A stretch of DNA of 21,723 nucleotides from an uncultured Holophagales bacterium (GTDB lineage Bacteria; Acidobacteriota; Thermoanaerobaculia; Multivoradales; UBA5704), in NCBI GenBank assembly GCA_963842525.1, contig CAWJGT010000028.1, positions 1-21,723 of the forward strand, given 5' to 3'. Below the pieces are notes generated by a model, which worked only from the letters and a program-made list of their open reading frames with translations, made no database searches and was not told the DNA's origin. Made by a program: the position numbers and the translations under genes. Position 1 is the first letter of the stretch. Every line of letters begins with the position of its first letter. Shown one piece after another: positions 1-11,306 of the stretch.

Positions 1-66
1 GTCTTTTTTGTCCTTGGGAGGGTCCTTCCCTTCCCCGGCCAGTCGGAGTACCATGGCGGCGCTTTC

Positions 67-1731
67 ATGGTTCCCTTGGCCCAAATCTTCCGCGGCCGTC
101 CGGCCAGGCTCCGGTTTCCCGGCGTGCTCGCCATCGCGCTCCTTGCGGGTTGCGGGCGGGACGAGACCGACGCGCCGCAGGTCCCGACGGCGCAGGGGCC
201 GCGCCGCGGCGGCACCGTCGTCACCGGCTGGGGCGCCGAGCCCTCCGGCGTCAACGAGTACATCACGCCGTCCACCAATGCCACCAACGAGGTCCTGTTC
301 CTGATCTTCCGGCACCTGCTCGAAGAGCAGCCGGATTTCTTCACCGGCCCGCCGAGCCTGACACCGCAGCTCGCGACGTCCTACGAATGGTCGGACGACC
401 ACAAGACGCTCACCTTCCACCTGCGGAAGGACGCGGTCTGGAGCGACGGCGTGCCACTCACCGCCGAGGACGTGCGCTGGAGCTGGCAGGCCCAGATGGA
501 CCCTGACGTCGCGTGGGACAGCGCCTACATGAAGGCCGAGATCACGGACGTCGAGGCGGTCGATCCCCACACGGTCCGCTTTCATTTCCGGCGCGCCTAT
601 GCCAAGCAGATCCTGGACGCCAACGAAGGGGTGATCCTCCCCCGACACGTCTGGAGCAAGCTCCCCTTCTCCAAATGGCGGGAGAGCGCCGACTGGTTCA
701 AGCAGAACCTGGTGACGGCCGGCCCCTTCAAGATCCATTCATGGACACCCCAGCAGGAGCTCGTGCTGGCGCGCAACGATCGGTATTACGAAAAAGACCG
801 CCCCTATCTCGACCGGGTCGTCATGCGTTTCCTGCCGGACCCGAGCACCCAGATGACCCAGCTCCTGAATGGCGAGCTCGACTTCGTGTTCCAGATCGCT
901 CCGTCCGACGCGCAACGGATCCTCGCCGCGCCGCACCTCCAACTGGTCCCGTTCTGGTCGAACCTCTCCGTCGTGGTGACCTGGAACCTGACCGACCCGC
1001 TCTTCTCCGACCCCGAGGTGCGGCGGGCCCTCACCCTGGCCCTCGACCGCCAAGCCATCGTCGAGACGATCCTCGGCCGGTATGGCCGGGTCGGCAGCTC
1101 ACCGATCGTCAGCGACGTCTGGGCGCACGACCGGTCCATCAAGCCGCTCCCCTACGACCCCGCCGAGGCGCGCCGCATCCTGGCCGCCAAGGGGTGGCGC
1201 GACAGCAACGGGGACGGCATCCTCGACCGCAACGGCAAGCCGTTCGCCTTCGAGATCAGCACCAATACGAACAACCAGCAGCGTGCCGACTCGCTGGTCA
1301 TGATCCAGGACCAGCTCAAGAAGGTAGGTATCCAGGCCACGCCCCGCATCCTGGAGTTCAATACCCTGACGGCGCAGACCAACAGCGGCGACTTTCAGGC
1401 CGCGGTGGTCGGCTTCGTCATGGACACCAGCCTCGACCTCACCGGCAACTACCAGAGCCGGGCGATCCCCCCGAACGGGTCGAACTCCATGCGCTATGCC
1501 AACCCCGAGGTCGACCGGCTCATGGACGAGGTGGCCGCCGCGCCGGATCTGCGCGCGGTCCTGACCCAGATCCATGCGCTCGAACGGATCATCGTCCGCG
1601 ACCAGCCGGTCACCTTCCTCTGGGAATCGCAGCGGCTGGCGGTGGTCAGCAAGCGGACCCACGACGCGAATCCGAACCAGTTGCGCGGGTTCTTCAACCT
1701 CAAGGACTGGTGGGTCGAGCCGCGGCCGTGA
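67..1731 (+). CDS. ABC transporter peptide/nickel-family (family 5, OppA/DppA-like) substrate-binding lipoprotein
   Basis: 554 aa; lipobox LLAGC; family-5 motifs (LATSYEWSDDHKTLTFHLRKDAVWSDGVPLTAEDV, GPFKI, DPEVRRALTLALDR); DSNGDG Ca-binding-like loop; followed by two permeases. Confidence 0.93.
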   Translation: MVPLAQIFRGRPARLRFPGVLAIALLAGCGRDETDAPQVPTAQGPRRGGTVVTGWGAEPSGVNEYITPSTNATNEVLFLIFRHLLEEQPDFFTGPPSLTPQLATSYEWSDDHKTLTFHLRKDAVWSDGVPLTAEDVRWSWQAQMDPDVAWDSAYMKAEITDVEAVDPHTVRFHFRRAYAKQILDANEGVILPRHVWSKLPFSKWRESADWFKQNLVTAGPFKIHSWTPQQELVLARNDRYYEKDRPYLDRVVMRFLPDPSTQMTQLLNGELDFVFQIAPSDAQRILAAPHLQLVPFWSNLSVVVTWNLTDPLFSDPEVRRALTLALDRQAIVETILGRYGRVGSSPIVSDVWAHDRSIKPLPYDPAEARRILAAKGWRDSNGDGILDRNGKPFAFEISTNTNNQQRADSLVMIQDQLKKVGIQATPRILEFNTLTAQTNSGDFQAAVVGFVMDTSLDLTGNYQSRAIPPNGSNSMRYANPEVDRLMDEVAAAPDLRAVLTQIHALERIIVRDQPVTFLWESQRLAVVSKRTHDANPNQLRGFFNLKDWWVEPRP

Positions 1732-1756
1732 CCGTGCTCCCTCGCGGCGAGGACCG

Positions 1757-2737
1757 TTGACCGGCTTCCTCCTGCGGCGCTTCGCCGCCTCGCTGCTCCT
1801 CCTCTGGCTGGTTCTCACCGTCGTCTTCTTCCTGGTCCACATCGCGCCGGGTGATCCGGTGGACAGCCTGCTCGCGGATTCGCGCATCGTCAGCGTGGAG
1901 CAGCGGCAGGCCCTGGTCCGTGCCCTCGGGCTGGACCGCCCCGTCCACGAGCAGTACTTCCTGTGGCTGGGGAAGGTGGTGCGCGGCGACTGGGGCATCT
2001 CGTTCGCGCAGCAGCGGCCGGTGGCGACCGCGATCGCCGAGGCGCTCCCGGCCACCCTCCTCCTGACCGGCGCGGCGCTCCTGGTCGAGTACGTGGTGGC
2101 CCTGCTGCTCGGCGTCGCCGCCGCCCGGCGGCCCGGGAGCGTCCTGGACCATGTCATCCGCGTGGTCTCACTCTTCTTCAATGCGCAGCCACCCTTCTGG
2201 CTCGGCCTCATGGCGATCCTTCTGTTCGCATATGTCTGGCCCGTGATGCCGTCCGGTCAACTGCACTCGGTCGACGCGGACCAGATGGGCCCTCTCGGGC
2301 GGCTGCTCGACCTGGCCCGCCACCTGGCGCTCCCGGCGCTGGTGCTCGGCCTGTTTGCGGCGGGCTCGACGGTCCGCTTCGTGCGCGCCAGCCTGCTCGA
2401 GGTGCTGCACCGGGACTACGTCCGCACCGCCCGCGCCAAGGGGCTCTCCGAGCGCCGGGTGCTCTGGGTCCACGCCCTGCGCAACGCCCTGACGCCGGTC
2501 ATCCAGATCTTCGCCCTGACGCTGCCGAGCCTGCTGAGCGGCTCGCTGGTCACCGAGACCGTCTTCGCCCTCCCCGGCATCGGCCGGCTCACCTTCTCGG
2601 CCATCCTCGCCCGCGATACGCCGCTGATCCTGGGCACCACCGCCTTGGCCGGCGCGACGGTGGTCCTCGGCAACCTGCTGGCGGACGTCCTCCAGGTCCT
2701 GGCCGATCCGACCCAGCGGCGAGAGCGCGATGCGTAG
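1757..2737 (+). CDS. ABC transporter permease (OppB/DppB-like)
   Basis: TTG start with GAGGA upstream; APGDP, GDWGISF and EAA-loop DYVRTARAKGLSERRVLWVHALRNA motifs. Confidence 0.92.
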   Translation: MTGFLLRRFAASLLLLWLVLTVVFFLVHIAPGDPVDSLLADSRIVSVEQRQALVRALGLDRPVHEQYFLWLGKVVRGDWGISFAQQRPVATAIAEALPATLLLTGAALLVEYVVALLLGVAAARRPGSVLDHVIRVVSLFFNAQPPFWLGLMAILLFAYVWPVMPSGQLHSVDADQMGPLGRLLDLARHLALPALVLGLFAAGSTVRFVRASLLEVLHRDYVRTARAKGLSERRVLWVHALRNALTPVIQIFALTLPSLLSGSLVTETVFALPGIGRLTFSAILARDTPLILGTTALAGATVVLGNLLADVLQVLADPTQRRERDA

Positions 2738-3712
2738 GCTTTCTCCCACGCTCCGTTGGGGGATCGCCCTCTGCGGCGGGCTCGGGCTCCTCGCGCTCGT
2801 GGCGCCCTGGATCGCGCCCTACGATCCGGCGGAGCAGCTCGACCCGGCCGTGGCCGCCTACCGGCCGCCCGGCACGGTCCTCCCGGCGGTGCACTTGGCG
2901 GACGGGAGCTGGCGCCTGGTCGAGCGCGCCGAACGCATTCCCGGCGGTCTGCGGATCGAACGCCAGGGGGAGACGAAGAGCTCGCCGAGGCCGATGTCGT
3001 CAATCTCACGCCGGACGGGGTGGCCGACCGCCGCCGCTTCCTCCTGGGGAGCGACAAGTTCGGGCGCGATCTTGTCTCACGGATGCTCTACGGCGCCCGC
3101 GTCTCCCTGGCCGTCGGGTTGCTCGCGGTGACCCTGGCCCTGAGCGTCGGCATCTCCGTGGGCGCAGCCGCCGCCCTCGGCGGGCGCTGGCTCGACGCGC
3201 TGTTGATGCGCGGCGTCGACGCCCTGCTCTCCTTCCCGTCGCTCTTCCTGCTGATCGCCGTGGTGGCCTTCTTCCGGCCGGGCACAATGATGATGGTGGC
3301 GATCCTCGGCGGGACCTCCTGGATGGGGATCAGCCGGCTGACCCGCGCCGAGATCCTCGGCCTGCGGCAGCGCGAATTCGTGCTCGCGGCGCGGACCCTG
3401 GGGCAGCACCCTTTCGCCATTTTCTGGCGCCACCTCCTGCCCAACGCCTTCACCCCGGTGCTGATCCAGGCCACCCTGTTGATCGGCGCGGTGATCCTGG
3501 CCGAATCGTCGCTCTCGTTCCTCGGCTTCGGCATCCAGCCGCCGACGCCGAGTTGGGGCAACATGGTGGCCGAGGGACGCGAGGCGCTCTCCTACGCCTG
3601 GTGGGTCGCGACCTTCCCGGGCCTGGCCATCACGCTCACCGTGATCGCCTTCAACCTCCTGGGCGAAGGCTTGCGGGATACGCTGGACCCGCACCGGGAC
3701 CTCACCTCGTAG
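2730..3712 (+). CDS. ABC transporter permease (OppC/DppC-like), frameshifted at the G-run 2966-2970
   Basis: N-part (APWIAPYDP) in the 2730 frame; C-part (LGSDKFGRD, REFVLAARTLG, PPTPSWGNM, GEGLRDTLDP) in the 2756 frame; one extra G joins them. Confidence 0.88.
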
Positions 3713-5027: not shown

Positions 5028-6062
5028 GTGCTGACCCGGGACTTCGACTACGAACTGCCGCCCGAGAGCATCGCCCAGCGCCCGGCGCCCCGCGGCGAGA
5101 GCCGCCTGCTGGTCCTCGACCGGAAAGGCCCCGAACGCCACCGCCGCATCCGCGACCTCCCGGAGCTGCTCCGTCCCGGCGACCTCCTGGTCCTGAACGA
5201 CACAAGGGTCATTCCGGCGCGCCTCTTCGGCCACCGTGTCGAAGGAGGCGGACGTGTCGAAATCCTGCTGGTCGAGAAGACCGGGGACAGCGACTGGGAC
5301 GTCCTCCTGAAGCCCGGCCGCCGCGCCCGGCCAGGTACGGTCATCGAGCTCGAGCCGGGCCTCACCGCCGAAGTCCTGGGCCGTGGCAAGGAAGGGCGTT
5401 TCCGTCTGCGCTTCTCCGAGCCGATCGAAGCCCACCTCGACCGTCTCGGCCACGTCCCGCTCCCTCCCTACATCGGCCGTCCGGACGAGCCCGCCGACCG
5501 CGACCGCTACCAGACCGTCTACGCCCAACACCCCGGAGCCATCGCCGCCCCTACCGCCGGCCTCCACTTCTCCCAGGACCTCCTGGACCAGATCGCCGCC
5601 GCTGGCATCGGCATCGCAAGAGTGACCCTCCACGTCGGCCTCGGCACCTTCAAGCCGGTCCAGGCCGAATGGATCGAGGAGCACCGCATGGAAAGGGAGC
5701 GTTACGAGATCAACGAAGAGGCCGCCGAAGCCATCCGCCAGACCCGCGCCCGGGGAGGACGGGTGGTGGCCGTGGGGACCACGGTGGTGAGGACACTCGA
5801 ATCCGCCGCGCTGGCCGGAGGCGGCGAGGTCCGGCCGGGATCGGGATCGACGGAGCTGTTCATCACCCCGGGGTTCCGCTTTCAGGCGGTGGATGTGCTG
5901 CTCACCAACTTCCACCTGCCGCGGTCGACCCTGCTCATGCTGGTTTCCGCGTTTGCCGGGAGGGAGCGGATCCTGGCCGCCTACGAGGAAGCGGTTCGGA
6001 TGGAATATCGGTTTTATTCGTATGGGGATGCAATGTTGGTTGAACGAAGGCGTAGCGCGTAG
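5028..6062 (+). CDS. queA: tRNA preQ1(34) S-adenosylmethionine ribosyltransferase-isomerase
   Basis: DFDYELP, LVLNDTRVIPARL, PLPPYI, YQTVYA, AAPTAGLHF, TNFHLPRSTLLMLVSAF, YRFYSYGDAM. Confidence 0.97.
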   Translation: MLTRDFDYELPPESIAQRPAPRGESRLLVLDRKGPERHRRIRDLPELLRPGDLLVLNDTRVIPARLFGHRVEGGGRVEILLVEKTGDSDWDVLLKPGRRARPGTVIELEPGLTAEVLGRGKEGRFRLRFSEPIEAHLDRLGHVPLPPYIGRPDEPADRDRYQTVYAQHPGAIAAPTAGLHFSQDLLDQIAAAGIGIARVTLHVGLGTFKPVQAEWIEEHRMERERYEINEEAAEAIRQTRARGGRVVAVGTTVVRTLESAALAGGGEVRPGSGSTELFITPGFRFQAVDVLLTNFHLPRSTLLMLVSAFAGRERILAAYEEAVRMEYRFYSYGDAMLVERRRSA

Positions 6063-6119
6063 AGACGCCCTAGTCCACGACCACAAACCTTTCAGTTACC
6101 ACCGCCGTCAGGGCGTCTC
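6059..6119. repeat. GTAG-type REP-like inverted repeat / possible terminator between convergent genes
   Basis: GTAG at 6059-6062 (contains the queA stop), then GAGACGCCCT (6062-6071) ... AGGGCGTCTC (6110-6119), a perfect 10 bp inverted repeat. Confidence 0.5.
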
Positions 6120-6179
6120 CAAGGCCCCAGCAACCTCCTCCGCCCCGCCAAACACCACCCCCGGCCCGATCTCATGGTC

Positions 6180-6215
6180 CAGAGATTCAGAGGACAGAGG
6201 GTTCAGAGATCAGAG
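6180..6215 (-). repeat. Five CTCTG pentamers spanning the stop codon of the NACHT/FGE gene
   Basis: CAGAG on + at 6180, 6188, 6195, 6204 and 6211. Confidence 0.65.
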
Positions 6216-8995
6216 GAGAATGGGAGAAGCACGACCCGAAACCCTACGTACCAGTTACGGCCCGGAGGACCGAACCAGTCGCGGAAGGCGCAGCGCACGT
6301 ACGACGAATCGCTGAAGTAAGCGCCGCCCCGCAACACCCGGGGGCCAGGGGCCTGCAAGTCTTCTTTCCTCTCGTCTCTCGTGTACGGGTAATCTTTCCC
6401 CAAGCTCCGCGTCCATTCCCACACGTTCCCGCTCATCTCCTCGCAGCCGTACGGGCTCACTCCCTGGTGAAAACAGCCCACCGTGCTCGTTGTCCCAAGA
6501 CCTGTCTCGTCAGTGTTGGCCCATTCCACGCCCGATTTCTCGCCCCAGGGATAGATCCTGCCGTCGGTCCCCCGCGCAGCCTTTTCCCACTCGGCCTCCG
6601 ACGGTAACGCCGGCCTCAACCTTCCCGCGGCGAGCCCCTCCCAGAAGGGCCGTTCGGCCGGCTGGGCTGCCGGCTGCTCGCGGGCCAGCTCCCGCAGCCG
6701 GTCCCCCAGCCATTCGCAGTACGCCAGGGCATCGTGCCAGGAGACCCCTCTCATCGGGTGGTTGGAAACCCCCTCCAGGCTCTCCGGTCCCGCTGCGAAA
6801 CCGCTGCTCTTCACGAAGGCACGGAACTGTTCGGCCGTCACCGGGAACCGAGAGATGTAGTAGGCCGGCAGGTCGACCTCGTGCTGAGGAGTCTCCCTCT
6901 TCTGGGCCTCGGGATCTCTCTGGGGATCGCTCCCCATGAGGAACTTTCCGGCGGGAATCTCGACGAACCCCAAAAGGGGCTCCCGCAGCAAAAACCGGTT
7001 CGGATCGAACCGCGGATCGCCCAGCCGGGCCAGCGTTGTGCCGGCCAGGGCCCGCTCGGCGGCTGGGAAGAGGTCGCTTCCCAGGAGGTACACGTGCCAC
7101 CGTTGCAGCCGTTCGAGCTTGGGCCGGTTCACCTCACCGACCTTTGTGAGATCCGCGGATTCCGCAATAGTCTGCCCGGCCAGGTGTACTCCCCAGGCGT
7201 CCTCCGGGCCGCTGGCTGGATCATCAGGCTCACGAGGACACAGGTGCTCCGCCAGCGTCCAGACCGCCGAGATCGCTCCCCGCGCCGCCTTGGCTCCAGC
7301 CAGCAGCACCACCTCGCGCCAGCGGCCCGGATCCTTGCGGCCCAGCTCCGCCACCGTCGCCGGGAACTCCTCGCCAGTCAGGTGGCAGGCGGCCAGATAC
7401 TCCTGGAAGGTGCGGTGCGGAAAGGTGTAGACCCCAATACCCCGCGGCACCAGCAGACCGGCCCGCTGGCTCAGATAGTCCACCAACTCCGCTGGGTTGG
7501 TGTCCGGATTGCGCCGCAGGCGCATCAGGCGGCCGACGAGCTCTCCCTCAGGGAGGTCCGCCGTGCCTTGGAGGTCTCCCCGGCAGTGGATCTCGAAGGC
7601 AAGGTCTTCGAGCACCTGCCGGACCTGTTCCCTGCCCACCGCCAGATGTTGCGCCAGGCTCGGCTGGATGAGCACGGTCTGCCCCTTGGCATCGCGGATC
7701 ACCCGCTGGCTCTCCCAGAGATTCAGGAGCAGCTCCACCGCGTCCTCATAAAGCTGCTCCCGCCTTTCTGGCAAGCTGCCGCCCCGCCAGGCATGCAGAC
7801 TTGCCATAAGCGTGAGGAGCAGAGGACGCTCGGCGAGCCCCCGGAGGCGGTTGCTGCCAAAGATCGCCCGCCGCAGGAGCTCGGCGCGGCCCCGCGCCTC
7901 CTCCGCCCCGATCCGGCCCACCGCAGCGGCGTGGTCATACCATCGCTGGACGAAATTCCCAATCTGGCTGTTGTCGAACGGCGCGAGCACCGCCTCAGAG
8001 AATCCCTTGAGTGCCCACCCCTGGCTCCGGTAGGCGTACGTGCGGCTGGTCAGGAGCACACGGCACTTCCCGAAGGTACGGCCGAAGTCCTCGACCGCCT
8101 GCCGGATACGTTCCCTGCGGCTCTCTGCCTCGGGCACCTCGTCCAGGCCGTCGAATAGCAGCAGACCACCTTTCTCCTGAAGCTCCTTCTTGAGAAGGGG
8201 TGCGTAATCGTCGAGACTGCTCTCTTCGAGCGTCCATTCGATGAAGCTCCACAGATGTCGCGCCGACGCGGTCTCCTCAGAAGACGGGAGCCCTCTGGCC
8301 GCGAAATCCCGCAGCACCACCCGCACAGGCAGTAGCGGGCCGTGGCTCCACGGCTGAGGCTTCTCATCCTCATCAGACAGGGGAGAGCGCAGAAGCGCCA
8401 GGTTCGCCCGGGGGCGGCCGAGGATCTCGCCGGCCAGGCACAGGGCCACGAAATTGAGGAAGGTGCTCTTGCCGCTCCCGGGGTCGCCCAGGAGTACGAG
8501 GCGCTCATGGAGATTGAGTTGTTCCAGGGCGGAACGACGTCGGCCCATATCAGGCCCCTTGAATCCCCGATAGCCTTCCTGGTCCTCCGCAGGCGACATG
8601 GTCAACAGCGCCGTGTAGACGGCCTCCAGGCTGAGGCGGGCTTCGGCCTCATTGCTGGCCGCCGCCGGATCGATGCCGGTGAGGGACAGGTCCCCGACCT
8701 GCTCCATGAGCCGGGATAGATAGGCCGAGCGCAGGGCGGCGGGATCGGCCCCGGTGGTTCCCGAGCCCAGGACGATGTTGCCCCCGACGTTCCCGCCGAC
8801 CACCACGCTCCCCGCGCCGCCCGCCAACGCACCCATCCCCTCAGCGATGGCGCCCGAGCCCTCGACCCGGGCCACTACCGACTCCTGGGCCCGCAGCATC
8901 TCGATCATCCGCTCGATCTGATTATCCGGCAGCAAACCGCGCAGGCGGGACCGGATCTCCTCATGCTCGCGGGATGGATCGGCCGGCTCACTCAC
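6203..8995 (-). CDS. NLR-like protein: N-terminal amyloid-like motif + NACHT NTPase + C-terminal FGE-sulfatase (SUMF1/EgtB/PvdO, CLec-fold) domain, 930 aa
   Basis: Walker A GDPGSGKS, NACHT Walker B LLLFDGLDEV, PLLLTL, FPHRTFQEYLAA; FGE motifs FLMGS, LPSEAEWEKAARG, YPWG, MSGNVWEW, RVLRGG, GFRVV; GTG start overlaps the upstream stop (GTGAGTGA), with GGGAG RBS. Confidence 0.9.
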   Translation of the reverse strand: MSEPADPSREHEEIRSRLRGLLPDNQIERMIEMLRAQESVVARVEGSGAIAEGMGALAGGAGSVVVGGNVGGNIVLGSGTTGADPAALRSAYLSRLMEQVGDLSLTGIDPAAASNEAEARLSLEAVYTALLTMSPAEDQEGYRGFKGPDMGRRRSALEQLNLHERLVLLGDPGSGKSTFLNFVALCLAGEILGRPRANLALLRSPLSDEDEKPQPWSHGPLLPVRVVLRDFAARGLPSSEETASARHLWSFIEWTLEESSLDDYAPLLKKELQEKGGLLLFDGLDEVPEAESRRERIRQAVEDFGRTFGKCRVLLTSRTYAYRSQGWALKGFSEAVLAPFDNSQIGNFVQRWYDHAAAVGRIGAEEARGRAELLRRAIFGSNRLRGLAERPLLLTLMASLHAWRGGSLPERREQLYEDAVELLLNLWESQRVIRDAKGQTVLIQPSLAQHLAVGREQVRQVLEDLAFEIHCRGDLQGTADLPEGELVGRLMRLRRNPDTNPAELVDYLSQRAGLLVPRGIGVYTFPHRTFQEYLAACHLTGEEFPATVAELGRKDPGRWREVVLLAGAKAARGAISAVWTLAEHLCPREPDDPASGPEDAWGVHLAGQTIAESADLTKVGEVNRPKLERLQRWHVYLLGSDLFPAAERALAGTTLARLGDPRFDPNRFLLREPLLGFVEIPAGKFLMGSDPQRDPEAQKRETPQHEVDLPAYYISRFPVTAEQFRAFVKSSGFAAGPESLEGVSNHPMRGVSWHDALAYCEWLGDRLRELAREQPAAQPAERPFWEGLAAGRLRPALPSEAEWEKAARGTDGRIYPWGEKSGVEWANTDETGLGTTSTVGCFHQGVSPYGCEEMSGNVWEWTRSLGKDYPYTRDERKEDLQAPGPRVLRGGAYFSDSSYVRCAFRDWFGPPGRNWYVGFRVVLLPFSSDL

Positions 8996-9452
8996 GCTTC
9001 GGCTCCCGGCCGAGAACGATATCCCCGTGCACGTCCCGGCCCACGGCGACCCCGCCAGCCCCGGCCGCCACCGCCCCGGGACCCTGCGCGACGGCACCGC
9101 TTCCCTGAACCGTGGCAGTGAAGGAGGGTCCGCCCGCGGCTTCGAGGAGCTTGGCGATCTCGGCCGCGAAAGTTTCGTCTTCCTCGAGAATCCTCTTGAG
9201 CTGGCGGCGGAGGGTCTCCACCGCCTCGGAGTCCTCGGGGGCCTTGGCCACTTCCTGGGCTGCCGCCTTAGCGATCGGCCTTTCCTCGACGCGGGGGTAC
9301 AGCCGCTCCCAAAGTCCCTTGACCTTCTCCCAGGCCCCGGTCCCCAGCGCTTTTCCGGCGTCGGCCACGAGATCCTGGCCGCCTTGGACGAGATACGGCA
9401 ACGCAGGCACGAGCATCTGCGTCAGGGCTTCGGCAAGGAGTTGGATGTCCAT
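8988..9452 (-). CDS. Bell-like (HeLo/HELL-analogous) helical effector protein with C-terminal amyloid-like motif
   Basis: 154 aa; hydrophobic N-terminal helix (LLAEALTQMLVPALPYLV), AWEKVKGLWERL...APED...LRRQLKRILEED pattern; G/A/V-rich tail matching the neighbour's N-terminus; GGAGG RBS. Family recognised by eye, no HMM run. Confidence 0.75.
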   Translation of the reverse strand: MDIQLLAEALTQMLVPALPYLVQGGQDLVADAGKALGTGAWEKVKGLWERLYPRVEERPIAKAAAQEVAKAPEDSEAVETLRRQLKRILEEDETFAAEIAKLLEAAGGPSFTATVQGSGAVAQGPGAVAAGAGGVAVGRDVHGDIVLGREPKRE

Positions 9453-9479
9453 GATCGGAGGTCCTCCGGGAATCTTTCA

Positions 9480-9488
9480 ATCTTATCA
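9480..9488 (-). promoter_or_regulatory. Putative extended -10 promoter (TGnTAAGAT) of the Bell-NACHT operon
   Basis: TGATAAGAT on minus, 27 nt upstream of the ATG and ahead of the RBS. Confidence 0.45.
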
Positions 9489-9528
9489 GGGGGGTTTGGC
9501 AGCATCCCTTGCCCCGGATTGGAGCCAT

Positions 9529-9959
9529 CTGGATCGAGCCAGGGCCGTTCTGTATGCCTATCGGGTGACATGTAACGATCCAGGGTCACGCTGGACGCTT
9601 ATCGGGCGACGCTGGATCGATACAGAGCGCTCTGGATGCTTATCGGGGACCCGGTAACGATCCAGCATGACTCTGAACGCGTATCGGCGACGCTGGATCG
9701 GTACAGGGCGCTCTCGATACCTATCACGTCACCCGATAGCGATCCAGGATGACCCCGAAAGCTTACAGGGCGCTCTGGATGCTTATCAGGTGACCGCTGG
9801 CGATCCAGGGTAACTCTGAACGCCTATCGGGCGACGGTGGATCGATACAGGACGCTCTAGATGCCTATCAGGTGACCTGCTATCGATCCATATGACCCTG
9901 AATGCTTAGCGGGCGACGCTGGATCGGTCCAGGTCACTCTGGATGCTTATCAGGTGACC
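9529..9959. repeat. Array 1: 21 degenerate 20-21 bp palindromic subunits arranged as an ~82 bp four-subunit higher-order repeat
   Basis: Subunits A ctggatcgatacagggcgct, B ctggatgcttatcaggtgacc, C nntaacgatccagggtcact, D ctgaacgcttatcgggcgacg; A starts at 9529, 9612, 9693, 9837, 9919. Confidence 0.9.
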
Positions 9960-9972
9960 CGATCACCAATCC

Positions 9973-10111
9973 TCACCCCACCGCCGCGGTGTACCGGTCG
10001 AGGATCTTCGGCCAGCCTTCGGCCGAGGCCATGCCGTCGCGGTAGGCCTCGGCGCCCTCGCCGCACTCGCACCTCGTGACGGATGGTGTTTTCGGTAGGC
10101 TGGCGGGTCAT
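9973..10111 (-). pseudogene. Internally deleted SRPBCC/AHSA1-like gene remnant
   Basis: AGGAGG RBS + ATG MTRQPTENTIRHEVRV joined out of frame to GEGAEAYRDGMASAEGWPKILDRYTAAVG*; both pieces resemble the termini of SRPBCC-family proteins. Confidence 0.6.
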
Positions 10112-10123
10112 CCAATGCCTCCT

Positions 10124-10396
10124 GCCCTGCGGCGTGCGCCGGCGGACCTGCGACGTGCGCCAACGGACCTGCAGGTCGGCACACAGGACCCGCAGGTCAA
10201 CCCAGCCACCCTGAAGGTCAGCGCACAGGACCCGAGGGTCAACCCGTCCGCCCTGAAGGTCGGCGCACAGGACCTGCAGGTCAACCTGCTTGACCTGCGG
10301 GTCAACGCACTGGACCCGCGGGTCAACGTGCCTGACCCGCAGGGCAAGTCGGTGGCCCCGCAGGTCCGCTGGCGCACGCCGCAGGTCCGTCGCCGC
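10124..10396. repeat. Array 2: 13 x 21 bp units with palindromic core GACCTGCAGGTC and 26 bp subterminal inverted repeats
   Basis: Exact 21 bp register; 10127-10152 matches the reverse complement of 10359-10384 at 25/26 positions. Confidence 0.88.
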
Positions 10397-10439
10397 ACTG
10401 TGCACCGGCGGCCTCGACCGTCCTCCCGTACCAGGGCGC

Positions 10440-10460
10440 CGGAGGAAGGCCGTTCCTCCG
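10440..10460 (-). terminator. Hairpin downstream of larB
   Basis: CGGAGGAA-N5-TTCCTCCG 8 bp stem just past the larB stop; no U-tract. Confidence 0.3.
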
Positions 10461-10478
10461 CGCTGCGGCGCCTGCCGG

Positions 10479-11306
10479 CTATTTTGTCACGAGCCCTTCG
10501 CGCGATGCCGGTGTGACGGACGCCGGGCGCTCGGCGCCAGCCGTTCGTGCAATGCGGCTGGCGAGGACGGCAGCCCCATAGCCGTTGTCGATGTTGACGA
10601 CGCCGATGCCCGGAGCGCAGGCGTTCAGCATGGTGAGGAGAGGCGCAATGCCGCCCAGGCCGACACCGTAGCCGACGCTGGTGGGGACGGCGACGACCGG
10701 GGCCGGGACGAGGCTGGCGACGACGGTGGGGAGGGCGCCGTCCATGCCCGCCACGGCGATGACGACGTCGGCGCGGCGGATGTCCGGCAGGTTGCCCAGC
10801 AGGCGGTGGAGGCCGGCGACTCCGACGTCGTAATGGCGGGTCACCTCGTGCCCGAACCAGGCGGCGCAGACGGCCGCCTCTTCGGCCACGGGCAGGTCGG
10901 AGGTGCCGGCCGCGAGGACGCTGATGGCGCCGGGCAGAGGCGGGTGCGGCTCGCCGCAGGTCAGCAGGCGGGCGCGCTCGTGGTAGACCGCCTCGGGATG
11001 ATCGGGATCGGGATGATTGGGACGGGCGCGCCGGATCTCTTCCGCCAGTTCGGGCCGCAGGCGGGTGACCAGCACCCGGCCGTGGGCGCGCATCATCCGG
11101 TCGACGATCGCCTGGAGGTCCGCCAGGGTCTTGCCTTCTCCATAAACGGCTTCGGGCAGGCCGTTGCGCAGCTCGCGGTGGAGGTCCAGCTTGGCGAACC
11201 CGAGGTCCGCATAGGGGAGGTCGGCGAGGTCCTGCAGAGCCTGTTCGGGCGCGAGGTCGCCGGCCGCGACTGCCTGGAGAAGCTCGAGGAGCTGTTGCGG
11301 TCTCAC
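10479..11306 (-). CDS. larB: Nickel-pincer cofactor biosynthesis protein LarB (PurE-like)
   Basis: DLGFAKLDLHRELRNGLPEAVYGEGKT, AGTSDLPVAEEA, DVGVAGLHRL, AGMDGALP, PTSVGYG, VVNIDNGYGA. Confidence 0.93.
   Translation of the reverse strand: MRPQQLLELLQAVAAGDLAPEQALQDLADLPYADLGFAKLDLHRELRNGLPEAVYGEGKTLADLQAIVDRMMRAHGRVLVTRLRPELAEEIRRARPNHPDPDHPEAVYHERARLLTCGEPHPPLPGAISVLAAGTSDLPVAEEAAVCAAWFGHEVTRHYDVGVAGLHRLLGNLPDIRRADVVIAVAGMDGALPTVVASLVPAPVVAVPTSVGYGVGLGGIAPLLTMLNACAPGIGVVNIDNGYGAAVLASRIARTAGAERPASVTPASREGLVTK

Follow-up and report, generated by a model that had tools for sequence, protein, structure and literature searches.

Two overlapping genes in the window (the whole stretch of DNA analysed, 21,723 nucleotides from an uncultured Holophagales bacterium) probably form a cell-death module of the Bell/BASS type, made up of an effector and an NLR receptor, whose tip appears to be rewritten by a diversity-generating retroelement (DGR) now or to have been so recently. 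The preliminary description had placed a shared motif at the C-terminus of a small effector and at the N-terminus of an NLR encoded by an adjacent, overlapping gene, and this layout was confirmed, the genes being collinear with an 8-bp overlap; the two 39-residue segments that it quoted were exact by translation. Each gene is preceded by a Shine-Dalgarno-like site, namely GGAGGA at 9467-9462, 9 nt ahead of the effector ATG, and GGGAG, 7 nt 5′ of the NLR GTG. This GTG is the probable start of the NLR, supported by the upstream GGGAG and by the product of P0106, a homologue with 80% identity, which starts at the equivalent residue. The coordinates are collected in Table 1.

Table 1. Positions in the window of the two genes, their domains and the surrounding insertion.
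Feature	Positions	Strand	Details
Effector gene (P0002)	8988..9452	-	154-aa ORF; ATG 9452-9450, TGA 8990-8988
NLR gene (P0001)	6203..8995	-	930-aa ORF, read from GTG 8995-8993
Gene overlap GTGAGTGA	8988..8995	-	8 bp, read from the sequence; NLR GTG overlaps effector TGA
Bell-like N-terminal helical domain of effector	9138..9452	-	residues 1-105; AF2 helices 3-105
Motif, effector copy	9009..9125	-	residues 110-148; most conserved part of the effector family
Motif, NLR copy	8765..8881	-	residues 39-77; aligns with N-terminal motifs of homologous NLRs
NACHT NTPase module	7931..8500	-	residues 166-355; Pfam PF05729, E=7.1e-10
FGE-sulfatase-fold (C-type-lectin-like, 'FGS') domain	6230..6967	-	residues 677-922; Pfam PF03781, E=4.5e-50
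DGR variable-region (VR)-like 3′ end of NLR gene	6203..6346	-	144 nt; VR signature, no cognate template repeat found
Insertion with module and repeat arrays	6063..10478	.	4.4 kb, between queA and a larB-like gene

The two 39-residue segments were identical at 24 positions in a gap-free alignment (BLOSUM62 sum 116). When the NLR segment was shuffled 100,000 times with its composition preserved, identity averaged 6.0, with a highest value of 16, and no shuffle reached 24; when both termini were shuffled with the offset left free (300 shuffles), the best 39-mer had a mean of 10.1 and a peak of 14. At the DNA level the two copies agree at only 72 of 117 coding positions, indicating that the motif is conserved as protein sequence and does not stem from a recent duplication of the DNA. 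Composition-corrected BLASTP at default settings gave no significant match between the copies (best E=0.13), as is expected from a segment rich in Gly, Ala and Val; tblastn without composition corrections detected the motif match at E=3e-10.

The pair was found at 13 loci in several phyla, the hosts being MAGs of Acidobacteriota, Competibacteraceae, Chloroflexota, Verrucomicrobiota and Actinobacteria, and contig C9 of the window's own genome carries a paralogous pair. Both partners carried the motif at 12 loci from several phyla. Conservation and co-variation of the motif pairs had been set beforehand as a check, and its outcome speaks for the proposed module: across these 12 loci the motif score was 86.4 for cognate vs 66.5 for non-cognate partners (permutation p=0.0005). 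The motif pairs were reciprocal best at L047, L048 and L060, and at L048 both partners had switched to another shared motif (18/21 identical). Within the 10 loci of the same motif type alone, the pair-specific co-variation was marginal (p=0.044) and the cognate partner ranked top among the NLR sides in only two. At L047, L050, L051 and L058, the Bell-like domain, motif, NACHT and FGE domains were fused all in one, indicating that the helical domain occupies the place of NLR effector domains.

We propose that the NACHT-FGS protein would act as the receptor, its C-terminal lectin-fold domain binding a ligand, for example an invader or non-self molecule. Ligand binding would cause the NACHT module to oligomerise, and the oligomer would gather the disordered Gly/Ala/Val-rich N-terminal motifs into a stacked beta, amyloid-like nucleus, which would template the almost identical C-terminal motif of the small protein. 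Once polymerised, the small protein would free its N-terminal hydrophobic helix from the bundle, and the freed helix would attack the membrane, so that the cell is killed or arrested in abortive infection or regulated death.

The motif is 32-36 residues long and follows the family consensus A-x-[LV]-[QH]-GSGA[IV]AQG-x-GAVAAG-x-GG[VI]A[VI]G-x-x-V-x-G; it consists of 29% G, 21% A and 14% V with few N/Q. The effector copy had a pLDDT below 50 in the monomer AF2 model. The spacing of Gly is heptad-like, with lags 5 and 7 dominant, and weak, sub-threshold matches to the YadA head repeat, a beta-roll, were obtained for 26 of the 46 family members (best E=2.3e-4), none of the 46 matching at the Pfam cut-off. 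These matches would fit a finite solenoid and an amyloid equally well. Both the Gly spacing and the YadA matches are compatible with a non-amyloid homotypic adaptor, in which a finite beta-roll or beta-solenoid hetero-oligomer docks the effector on the activated NLR by the logic of effector-associated domains (EADs) or Death-like adaptors, with no self-propagating templating. EADs, of which one copy sits on an NTPase and others on effectors, occur on STAND-FGS proteins as well (Kaur et al.), and the window-type motif is so conserved that non-cognate pairs score near cognate ones at loci of the same motif type. However, the motif is predicted to be disordered in the monomer, is short and of low complexity, unlike the globular EADs, and lacks a YadA match at the cut-off, whereas in position, length class and choice of partner domains it matches the BASS motifs for which fibrils and prions were demonstrated. 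We therefore consider such an adaptor unlikely, and amyloid-like templating remains our preferred reading.

The receptor is built of the N-terminal motif, NACHT, a helical spacer and the FGE-sulfatase (CLec/FGS) domain in this order. Pfam supported both domains that had been proposed earlier, with 39.4 bits for NACHT (cut-off 26.7) and 171.1 bits for FGE-sulfatase (cut-off 23.3), and the translation contains the Walker A motif GDPGSGKST and the Walker B motif LLLFDGLDEV. The FGE-sulfatase-fold domain is the putative ligand sensor. When it was compared with known enzymes, all equivalogs fell far under their cut-offs (e.g., EgtB, 92.8 bits vs 360).

The 3′ end of the NLR gene has the signature of a DGR variable region, on which the preliminary description was silent. 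It is the most divergent part in comparison with the 80%-identical P0106. Its nucleotide identity to two copies on contig C14 was 83-84%, although the FGE domains are just ~46% identical in protein, and 22 of the 26 variable columns in the VR core fell at codon positions 1-2 (hand count from the column list). Of these two closest copies, one belongs to a broken gene and the other to the remnant of a gene. Neither a cognate template repeat, sought by nhmmer in the assembly, nor an RT near the VR of the window was found; the single related template recovered from a metagenome has mismatches at 30 of its 113 positions other than adenine. An RT/Avd cassette is present elsewhere in the genome of the window, and there a DGR lies beside a TIR-NACHT-FGE paralogue with 15 of 16 mismatches at adenines. 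Among homologous loci, a template repeat adjoins the motif-NACHT-FGE gene at L048 (18 of 19 mismatches at template adenines), and 23 of 29 mismatches fell at template adenines at the motif-bearing L062. Judged from this pattern, the ligand-binding tip of the receptor looks as if it is, or recently was, rewritten by DGR, and the NLR gene may still be a target.

The module and its repeat arrays appear as an insertion, since queA ends at 6062 and the larB-like gene at 10479, while in the same-family genome G365 the queA-larB gap is 26 bp with alike flanking synteny (larE-like, gcvP). The GC content of the insertion is 0.63 vs ~0.70 in the flanks. The neighbours are housekeeping genes with no defence island around the module, and the genome has at least nine NACHT-FGE paralogues. 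These two features would also suit a role of the same mechanism in allorecognition within aggregates (recognition of kin or non-self) instead of anti-phage defence, which Dore et al. raise for DGR-diversified NACHT-CLec proteins and which has a counterpart in the incompatibility function of the fungal HET-S/NWD2. However, the only bacterial amyloid pair put to experimental test is described as an abortive-infection system, and bacterial NACHT proteins are reported to protect against phage. The observations on the window suit both roles alike, and we regard allorecognition as rather improbable and defence as the likelier role.

The small protein matched no family in Pfam, NCBIfam or PADLOC. Its AF2 model showed a helical bundle of ~105 residues, with pLDDT mostly 84-90 and 67-68 around residues 21-40, followed by a disordered tail (residues 110-154, pLDDT<50). 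The N-terminus reads MD-IQLLAEAL and its first helix is amphipathic/hydrophobic. A word-based search gave 103 homologues at E<=0.01, mostly without a Pfam domain, and D2 was nearly invariant across 46 homologues. A profile of the N-domain detected 2,481 cluster representatives at E<=0.001, and features were counted on 146 of the top 150 matches. These proteins are typically 130-160 aa; 136 of the 146 were <=300 aa, and 112 of these 136 had D/E at position 2 or 3. At least four interchangeable classes of C-terminal motif were present in the retrieved family: by deliberately narrow regexes, 10 members had the window type, 32 SGERSVAxGG, five QRVxAE and four the RHIM-like IQIG, with 88 unclassified. 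In eight of the ten long members, the domain is fused to a P-loop protein, the P-loop following 166-268 residues in. Because the acidic position 2/3, the size, the swappable motifs and the P-loop fusions match the published description, the small protein is termed Bell-like; this assignment follows described features, as Pfam, NCBIfam and PADLOC, in the form searched, contain no Bell/BASS model. The earlier designation as a Bell-like effector thus holds for the predicted helices, the acidic residue and the motifs, but the Bell fold was left unconfirmed by structure comparison, since a Foldseek search with the model identified no solved helical-bundle relative (0 matches at E<=0.001), and HeLo, MLKL and Bab were absent from its hits. 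The small protein probably attacks membranes.

The absence of a detectable catalytic or toxin family and of a solved relative in Foldseek would be consistent with a regulator of the NLR (a chaperone, for instance, or a protein that caps the N-terminal motif or inhibits it like an antitoxin), the executioner being another protein. This is very unlikely, because the helical domain lies at the very N-terminus of the fusion proteins (NACHT-FGE proteins at four loci, and eight of ten long members), which is where NLR effector domains are located, and the conserved acidic residue ahead of a hydrophobic helix 1 agrees with the description of Bell/HeLo/Bab. In addition, the motif ties NLRs elsewhere to recognised effectors, a caspase and DUF4062. 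The window type is also joined to EAD7 and to NACHT/nSTAND N-termini, a pattern reported for BASS motifs, and one protein (P0099) bears both this motif and EAD7. A functionless by-product of low-complexity composition or local duplication, which the Gly/Ala/Val richness and the composition-adjusted BLASTP might suggest, is effectively refuted by the shuffles, the low DNA identity, and the recurrence of the motif on both partners in several phyla with concordant change. The small protein is best regarded as the putative effector of an amyloid-type module.

Among known systems, NACHT/STAND-FGS 'antigen-receptor-type' proteins with DGR hypermutation have already been described (Kaur 2020, PMC7159879; Kaur 2021, PMC8195603; Kibby 2022, 10.1101/2022.07.19.500537; Dore 2024, PMC10907252), and the suggestion that the FGE-sulfatase/CLec sensor is little described was therefore overstated. 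The window receptor resembles them in the NACHT and C-terminal FGE-sulfatase domains, the hypervariable C-terminal patch, the several paralogues per genome with differing N-termini, the template repeats beside homologous loci, and the RT/Avd cassette elsewhere in the genome. Those receptors, however, are coupled to EADs, Death-like domains, TIR or peptidases, and some have 'N-terminal extensions without characterised domains'. In the passages covered by our literature search, neither an amyloid motif nor a Bell effector is linked to NACHT/STAND-CLec receptors. EADs (Kaur 2020) are likewise small modules on the NTPase N-terminus with other copies on diverse effectors encoded nearby, but they are globular and helical, whereas the window module is a 32-36-residue Gly/Ala/Val-rich segment predicted to be disordered.

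In HET-S/NWD2 of Podospora anserina, a NACHT NLR is described whose N-terminal motif templates the prion-forming motif at the C-terminus of a pore-forming helical effector encoded next to it, and the layout is that of the window pair. That system differs in being fungal and in its HeLo effector, 21-residue HRAM pseudo-repeat and WD40 sensor, and neither family searches nor Foldseek detected sequence or fold similarity to it.

The window pair also corresponds to the Bell/NLR pairs of filamentous bacteria, of which 91.3% are reported to be collinear and 42% overlapping (Dyrka et al. 2020, 10.1101/2020.01.06.895854). As described there, these pairs share with the window a helical protein of ~100 aa plus a tail, which is acidic at position 2/3 and starts with a hydrophobic helix, a motif at the C-terminus of this protein that recurs N-terminally in the product of the adjacent, collinear and overlapping NACHT gene, all-in-one fusions, and occurrence of the motif on further effector domains. 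They differ in their TPR/WD sensors, in contrast to FGE-sulfatase/CLec here, and in being mainly from Actinobacteria and Cyanobacteria, whereas the present pairs come from Acidobacteriota, Competibacteraceae, Chloroflexota and Verrucomicrobiota MAGs. The published BASS motifs are enriched in Q, N, G, V and I with a typical length of ~25 (Dyrka et al. 2020); the window motif is longer and richer in Ala. In E. coli, Bab/Agp (BASS11) acts in abortive infection by amyloid templating (Ibarlosa et al. 2024, 10.1101/2024.11.07.622273). Bab, with ~80 aa and a 23-aa motif, is unlike the 154-aa window effector, and no Bab-like protein was present among the 103 word-based matches of the latter. The Bab/Agp motif family is linked to TIR, CHAT, EAD7 and NACHT, and the window-type motif to DUF4062, caspase, EAD7 and NACHT. 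Bab/Agp, as reported, shows how a pair of this kind can defend the cells by abortive infection through amyloid templating.

The effector gene (product P0002) and the gene for the NACHT receptor (NLR; product P0001) are collinear, and the 8-bp overlap claimed for them in the preliminary description was seen directly: the TGA of the small gene lies inside GTGAGTGA, whose first GTG opens the NLR gene on the same strand. The sequence GGAGGA is located 9 nt upstream of the effector ATG and GGGAG is located 7 nt upstream of the NLR GTG. An NLR homologue from another assembly (P0106, 80% identical) starts at the residue equivalent to this GTG. In the published set of Bell/NLR pairs, 91.3% are collinear and 42% overlap (Dyrka et al. 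2020, 10.1101/2020.01.06.895854). Scanning for promoters and terminators returned one promoter-like site over the start codon and one terminator-like site within the NLR gene.

The two 39-residue stretches on which the pairing had been proposed, effector residues 110-148 and NLR residues 39-77, are exactly what the DNA encodes, and they are identical at 24 of 39 positions without gaps. The best of 100,000 composition-preserving shuffles reached 16/39, and the best of 300 shuffles of both termini with free offsets reached 14/39. Only 72 of 117 nucleotides are identical between the DNA segments encoding the two copies. The match was not called by composition-corrected BLASTP (E=0.13), and it was given E=3e-10 by uncorrected tblastn. 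The position of the motif at the NLR N-terminus is common to homologues. When NLR residues 30-100 were searched against 5.8 billion sequences, only the protein itself and one homologue passed the E-value, a query of this length being too short for so large a database. A structure prediction of the complex (three copies; NLR residues 30-85 plus effector residues 100-154) gave a score of 0.15 and a mark of 0.32, which speaks neither for nor against an interaction.

Genes and elements of the window and of related loci
Feature	Sequence	Coordinates	Strand	Remarks
Effector ORF (P0002)	window	8988-9452	-	154 aa; TGA at 8990-8988
NLR ORF (P0001)	window	6203-8995	-	930 aa, read from GTG 8995-8993
Two tandem-repeat arrays	window	9529-9959 and 10126-10398		units 41/82 nt and 21/42 nt; between effector and larB-like gene
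Second effector/NLR pair	window's genome, contig C9	1916741-1919974 (4741-7975 of region L007)		161-aa effector; 920-aa motif-NACHT-FGE protein
Third NACHT-FGE gene	C9 region L007	9039-10593		directly upstream of the C9 pair; split over two frames
Broken motif-NACHT-FGE gene	window's genome, contig C14	203500-207100 (6500-10160 of region L036)		interrupted by a repeated element
DGR cassette	window's genome (G000), contig C3	956050-961644		TIR-NACHT-FGE target, HTH gene, Avd-like gene, TR, RT frame
VR of C3 cassette	contig C3	959151-959295
TR of C3 cassette	contig C3	960646-960790
Bell-like effector and NACHT-FGE gene sharing a different motif	locus L048 (genome G016, contig C4)	4689-9789
TR of L048	locus L048	8148-8265		directly after the motif-NACHT-FGE gene
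Compact DGR cassette	metagenome contig L063			1132 nt; VR end, Avd gene, Asn-codon-rich TR, RT start
Window-type motif on other partners	locus L061 (Anaerolineales MAG)	2-3010
Window-type motif on other partners	locus L058	4076-4966
NACHT(-FGE) with Trp-rich N-terminus	locus L053	2047-4920
NACHT(-FGE) with Trp-rich N-terminus	locus L055	688-2773

The pairing of the two motif copies is supported by their co-variation, for which each effector tail was compared with each NLR N-terminus by local BLOSUM62 alignment and a permutation test was applied. The resulting p-values, which are indicative only because related loci are not independent, were 0.044 for the 10 loci with the window-type motif (cognate mean 86.2 versus 79.3; cognate NLR first in 2/10) and 0.0005 for 12 loci after addition of the diverged-tail loci L048 and L060 (86.4 versus 66.5). 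The window-type motif is strongly conserved, and most effector/NLR pairs therefore look interchangeable. Reciprocal best pairs in the 12-locus set were found at L047, L048, and L060. At L048, both partners share a different motif, ITASGDxSVAAxNINAPVII, with 18/21 identical residues, and this two-sided swap is the pattern expected if the copies must match.

Bell domains have been described as all-alpha bundles of ~100 residues with a hydrophobic N-terminal helix and a negative charge at position 2 or 3, which occur in proteins of 120-140 aa and, less often, at the N-terminus of NLRs (Dyrka et al. 2020, 10.1101/2020.01.06.895854). In the AF2 model of the effector, built from 46 sequences, residues 3-105 form a helical bundle whose block pLDDT is mostly 84-90, with a dip to 67-68; the tail of residues 110-154, which is the motif, has a pLDDT below 50. 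The protein begins with MDIQLLAEALTQMLVPALPYLV, and its first 24 residues have a mean hydropathy of +0.91, compared with -0.15 over the entire domain. At least 90% of the 46 homologues keep D2, and their N-terminal consensus is MD..LLA.A....LAP.LP.L. A profile of the N-domain (14 sequences, alignment A5) matched 2,481 of 1.84 billion cluster representatives at E<=0.001, including 1,155 at E<=1e-10. Family features were counted on the 146 members retrieved from the best 150 of these 2,481 matches: 136 were no longer than 300 aa, and most of these measured 130-165 aa and had the domain at the N-terminus; D/E occupies position 2 or 3 in 112 of the 136. A P-loop is found 166-268 residues into 8 of the 10 long members of this sample. 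Narrow regexes sorted the tails into at least four motif classes, namely the window type (10), SGERSVAxGG...TGD (32), QRVxAE (5), and the RHIM-like IQIG (4), and left 88 unclassified.

Judged by these described features, the effector N-domain has the published Bell properties: it is small, helical and acidic at position 2 or 3, its amyloid-type tails are swappable and include a RHIM-like one, and it is occasionally fused to the N-terminus of NLRs. The earlier assignment as a Bell-like effector holds in respect of the helical bundle, the acidic position, and the NLR fusions, and it gained nothing from structural comparison, since Foldseek of the effector model against the PDB returned 0 matches at E<=0.001 and thus no HeLo, MLKL, or Bab structure. 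A sequence profile search of the PDB returned nothing relevant, and Pfam, NCBIfam, and PADLOC, none of which includes a Bell model, gave no family match for the small protein. In the ESM Atlas, the nearest cluster (score 0.93) is a family of 95-aa cyanobacterial proteins, 26% of which carry PF20701 HetE-N; it serves as a lead only, and a literature search for PF20701/HetE-N gave nothing.

The NACHT and FGE-sulfatase architecture claimed for the NLR was confirmed, both Pfam domains scoring above cut-off. NACHT (PF05729) covers residues 166-355 with 39.4 bits against a cut-off of 26.7 and contains the Walker A motif GDPGSGKST and the Walker B motif LLLFDGLDEV. It is followed by a single C-terminal FGE-sulfatase-fold domain (PF03781, residues 677-922, 171.1 bits). 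The NCBIfam enzyme equivalogs score far under their cut-offs (EgtB 92.8/360, SenA 81.7/420, GldK 75.2/350, PvdO 44.5/500), which makes a predicted binding module of lectin fold, and not an enzyme, the best reading of the domain. PADLOC and NCBIfam searches of the NLR gave only P-loop-level matches and a sub-threshold EruA match. FGS/CLec NACHT proteins with a single C-terminal FGE fold are a class in Kibby 2022 (10.1101/2022.07.19.500537), and NACHT/STAND-FGS proteins have been described as an 'antigen receptor type' class that is often DGR-diversified and often present as several paralogues per genome (Kaur 2020 PMC7159879; Kaur 2021 PMC8195603; Kibby 2022 10.1101/2022.07.19.500537; Dore 2024 PMC10907252). 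The genome of the window encodes at least nine NACHT-FGE paralogues.

The 3' end of the NLR gene carries what its sequence identifies as the signature of a variable region (VR) of a diversity-generating retroelement (DGR). The last 144 nt of the gene match two copies on contig C14 at 83-84% identity, whereas whole FGE domains share ~46% protein identity. Over 150 nt, the three copies are 81-86% identical and differ at 32 columns, which fall on codon positions 1, 2, and 3 in 15, 9, and 8 cases; in the core of the VR, 22 of 26 variable columns, counted from the column list, are at positions 1-2. The flanks are near-identical, including ~50 nt beyond the stop codon. The VR is also the least conserved part in the comparison with P0106, since only about half of the last 44 residues are identical while the proteins are 80% identical overall.

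Searches of the 9.95-Mb assembly (96% complete) with blastn and with an nhmmer VR profile detected only other gene ends and no cognate template repeat (TR) for this VR. The plus-strand copy on C14 was rejected as the TR on two grounds: it carries bases other than A at positions where the VRs differ, and it runs on into a 134-aa FGE remnant. The C14 copies lie in a broken gene and in a gene remnant, beside an IS200-like transposase. At its N-terminus, the broken gene retains only the second half of the motif; this gene and the inverted 3'-end remnant flank the IS200/Y1-type transposase gene. A pattern scan of metagenomes found one contig, L063, which shares the exact 17-nt and 14-nt anchor strings of the window VR. 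All 10 differences between its own VR and TR are at template adenines. It was rejected as the cassette cognate to the window VR, as 30/113 non-A positions differ. The Logan contigs recovered from sequencing runs were all from soil metagenomes, with a word share of at most 0.10, and a few pieces of 151-189 nt were identical to the window.

Bona fide DGRs were detected in this family, both in the genome of the window and in relatives. In the cassette on contig C3, 15 of 16 VR/TR mismatches are at template adenines; its RT frame is only 237 aa and may be truncated. At L048, where the motif-NACHT-FGE gene is paired with a Bell-like effector, one TR serves two convergent FGE gene ends, with 18/19 mismatches at adenines for the first VR and 18/22 for the second; an RT was not seen within the 12 kb examined. 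At L062, another homologous locus, 23/29 TR mismatches are at adenines. The genome of the window has 18 RVT_1 matches, including several identical multi-copy ORFs of 451-483 aa that resemble group II intron-type RTs and may be one reason why the assembly is fragmented.

The effector/NLR pair recurs. The same genome (34 contigs) contains a second pair on C9, in which an effector 56% identical to that of the window overlaps the NLR gene by 14 bp. The motif of the C9 NLR is one heptad shorter, and part of its FGE domain is out of register with homologues, which may reflect a local double frameshift. The neighbouring third NACHT-FGE gene has a frameshift or is broken; where its VR-like end departs from its neighbour, it does so mainly at VR positions. 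The effector profile matched in 4 of 401 genomes sampled from the host phylum, and a scan of GTDB species genomes gave 13 loci, the motif pattern itself being present in at least 599 stretches. The hosts of the 13 loci are Competibacteraceae, Thermoanaerobaculia, other Acidobacteriota, Anaerolineales, Chloroflexia, Verrucomicrobiota, Actinobacteria, and a 'Proteobacteria' MAG.

To determine locus anatomy, five modules were mapped by BLAST to every ORF of 18 loci, and the motif strings were considered alongside. A separate Bell-like effector adjoins a motif-NACHT(-FGE) gene in the window and at L007, L047, L048, L051, L053, L054, L055, L056, and L060, and on every contig of sufficient length, L060 excepted, FGE-sulfatase is present in the partner NLR. 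All-in-one Bell-motif-NACHT-FGE proteins are encoded at L047, where the architecture was confirmed with Pfam, and at L050, L051, and L058. The motif is also joined to caspase, DUF4062, a Zn-ribbon/TPR protein, EAD7, and nSTAND N-termini, and this variety of partners points to a network in which the motif links effectors and adaptors. It stands at the C-terminus of caspase (Peptidase_C14) and DUF4062 proteins, after the zinc ribbon in the TPR protein, and at the N-terminus of the EAD7 protein; the window-type motif on such other partners was found at L061 and L058 and in P0099, a protein with EAD7. At L053 and L055, the NACHT(-FGE) protein begins with a Trp-rich, hydrophobic, transmembrane-like stretch followed by a degenerate motif, and these variants may be membrane-anchored receptors of the same system.

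The effector/NLR module is flanked by housekeeping genes (a peptide ABC transporter, queA, larB- and larE-like genes, the glycine cleavage system, and a CHAD protein). In a genome of the same family, queA and larB are separated by 26 bp with the same downstream synteny, and the NLR, the effector, and the two repeat arrays therefore constitute a 4.4-kb insertion, within which the GC content is lower. Arrays similar to the two tandem-repeat arrays are present at about a dozen other sites of the genome (contigs C1, C9, C11, C12, C19, C25) and resemble MITE/REP elements.

The anatomy and the evolutionary behaviour of the pair are directly seen here; how the pair would act is inferred from the paradigms of fungal HET-S/NWD2 and E. 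coli Bab/Agp. A ligand would bind the variable lectin tip of the receptor, and the NACHT module would then oligomerise and bring the N-terminal motifs together, which would nucleate a stacked beta structure. This structure would template the effector tail, and helix 1 of the effector would be freed to attack the membrane. The main rival is that the motif forms a non-amyloid beta-solenoid adaptor. This is favoured by the heptad-like glycine spacing of the motif, by the EAD logic of Kaur et al., and by sub-threshold matches to the YadA head in 26 of 46 members (best E=2.3e-4); the YadA head repeat scores 15.9 bits on P0002, below the Pfam cut-off of 25. In outline, the earlier interpretation as amyloid-type signalling is sound and the finding is real: probable Bell/BASS-type signalling is combined with an FGS receptor that resembles a DGR target.

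A more far-reaching proposal, which we hold tentatively and with more doubt than confidence, couples a hypermutating receptor to a prion-like relay. Adenine mutagenesis by DGRs would diversify the motif-NACHT-FGS proteins somatically into a receptor repertoire, and any member that bound its ligand would nucleate an amyloid; this amyloid would propagate itself and convert Bell-type pore-forming effectors from a common pool. The motif would then be a new BASS class for FGS receptors, widespread beyond Actinobacteria and Cyanobacteria. Because paralogues and loci differ little in the motif, a single executioner could be triggered by numerous receptors of different tuning.

Such pairs were not reported for these phyla in the texts consulted, and full-text searches with the motif strings gave nothing relevant; Table S2 of Dyrka et al. 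and the supplementary architecture figures of Dore et al. and Kibby et al. may list some. A full-text search combining amyloid, diversity-generating retroelement, and NACHT found nothing that joins both themes. Many DGR-diversified NACHT-CLec proteins have 'uncharacterised N-terminal extensions' and are not known to have a defined output mechanism. The present results suggest that, in one widespread subfamily, the extension is an amyloid-type motif that passes the signal to a Bell-type effector. The locus and its relatives thus offer a concrete, testable output for hypermutated bacterial receptors, and amyloid signalling would extend to Acidobacteriota, Competibacteraceae, Chloroflexota, and Verrucomicrobiota. 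The test material is compact, consisting of two 35-residue peptides and a 105-residue effector domain, with natural fusions and motif swaps as built-in controls. Bacterial amyloid signalling has been dissected experimentally in one example, Bab/Agp, and DGR-diversified NACHT-CLec 'antigen sensors' in none. If the proposed relay is true, the system would be a bacterial analogue of diversified antigen receptors that converge on a single death pathway.
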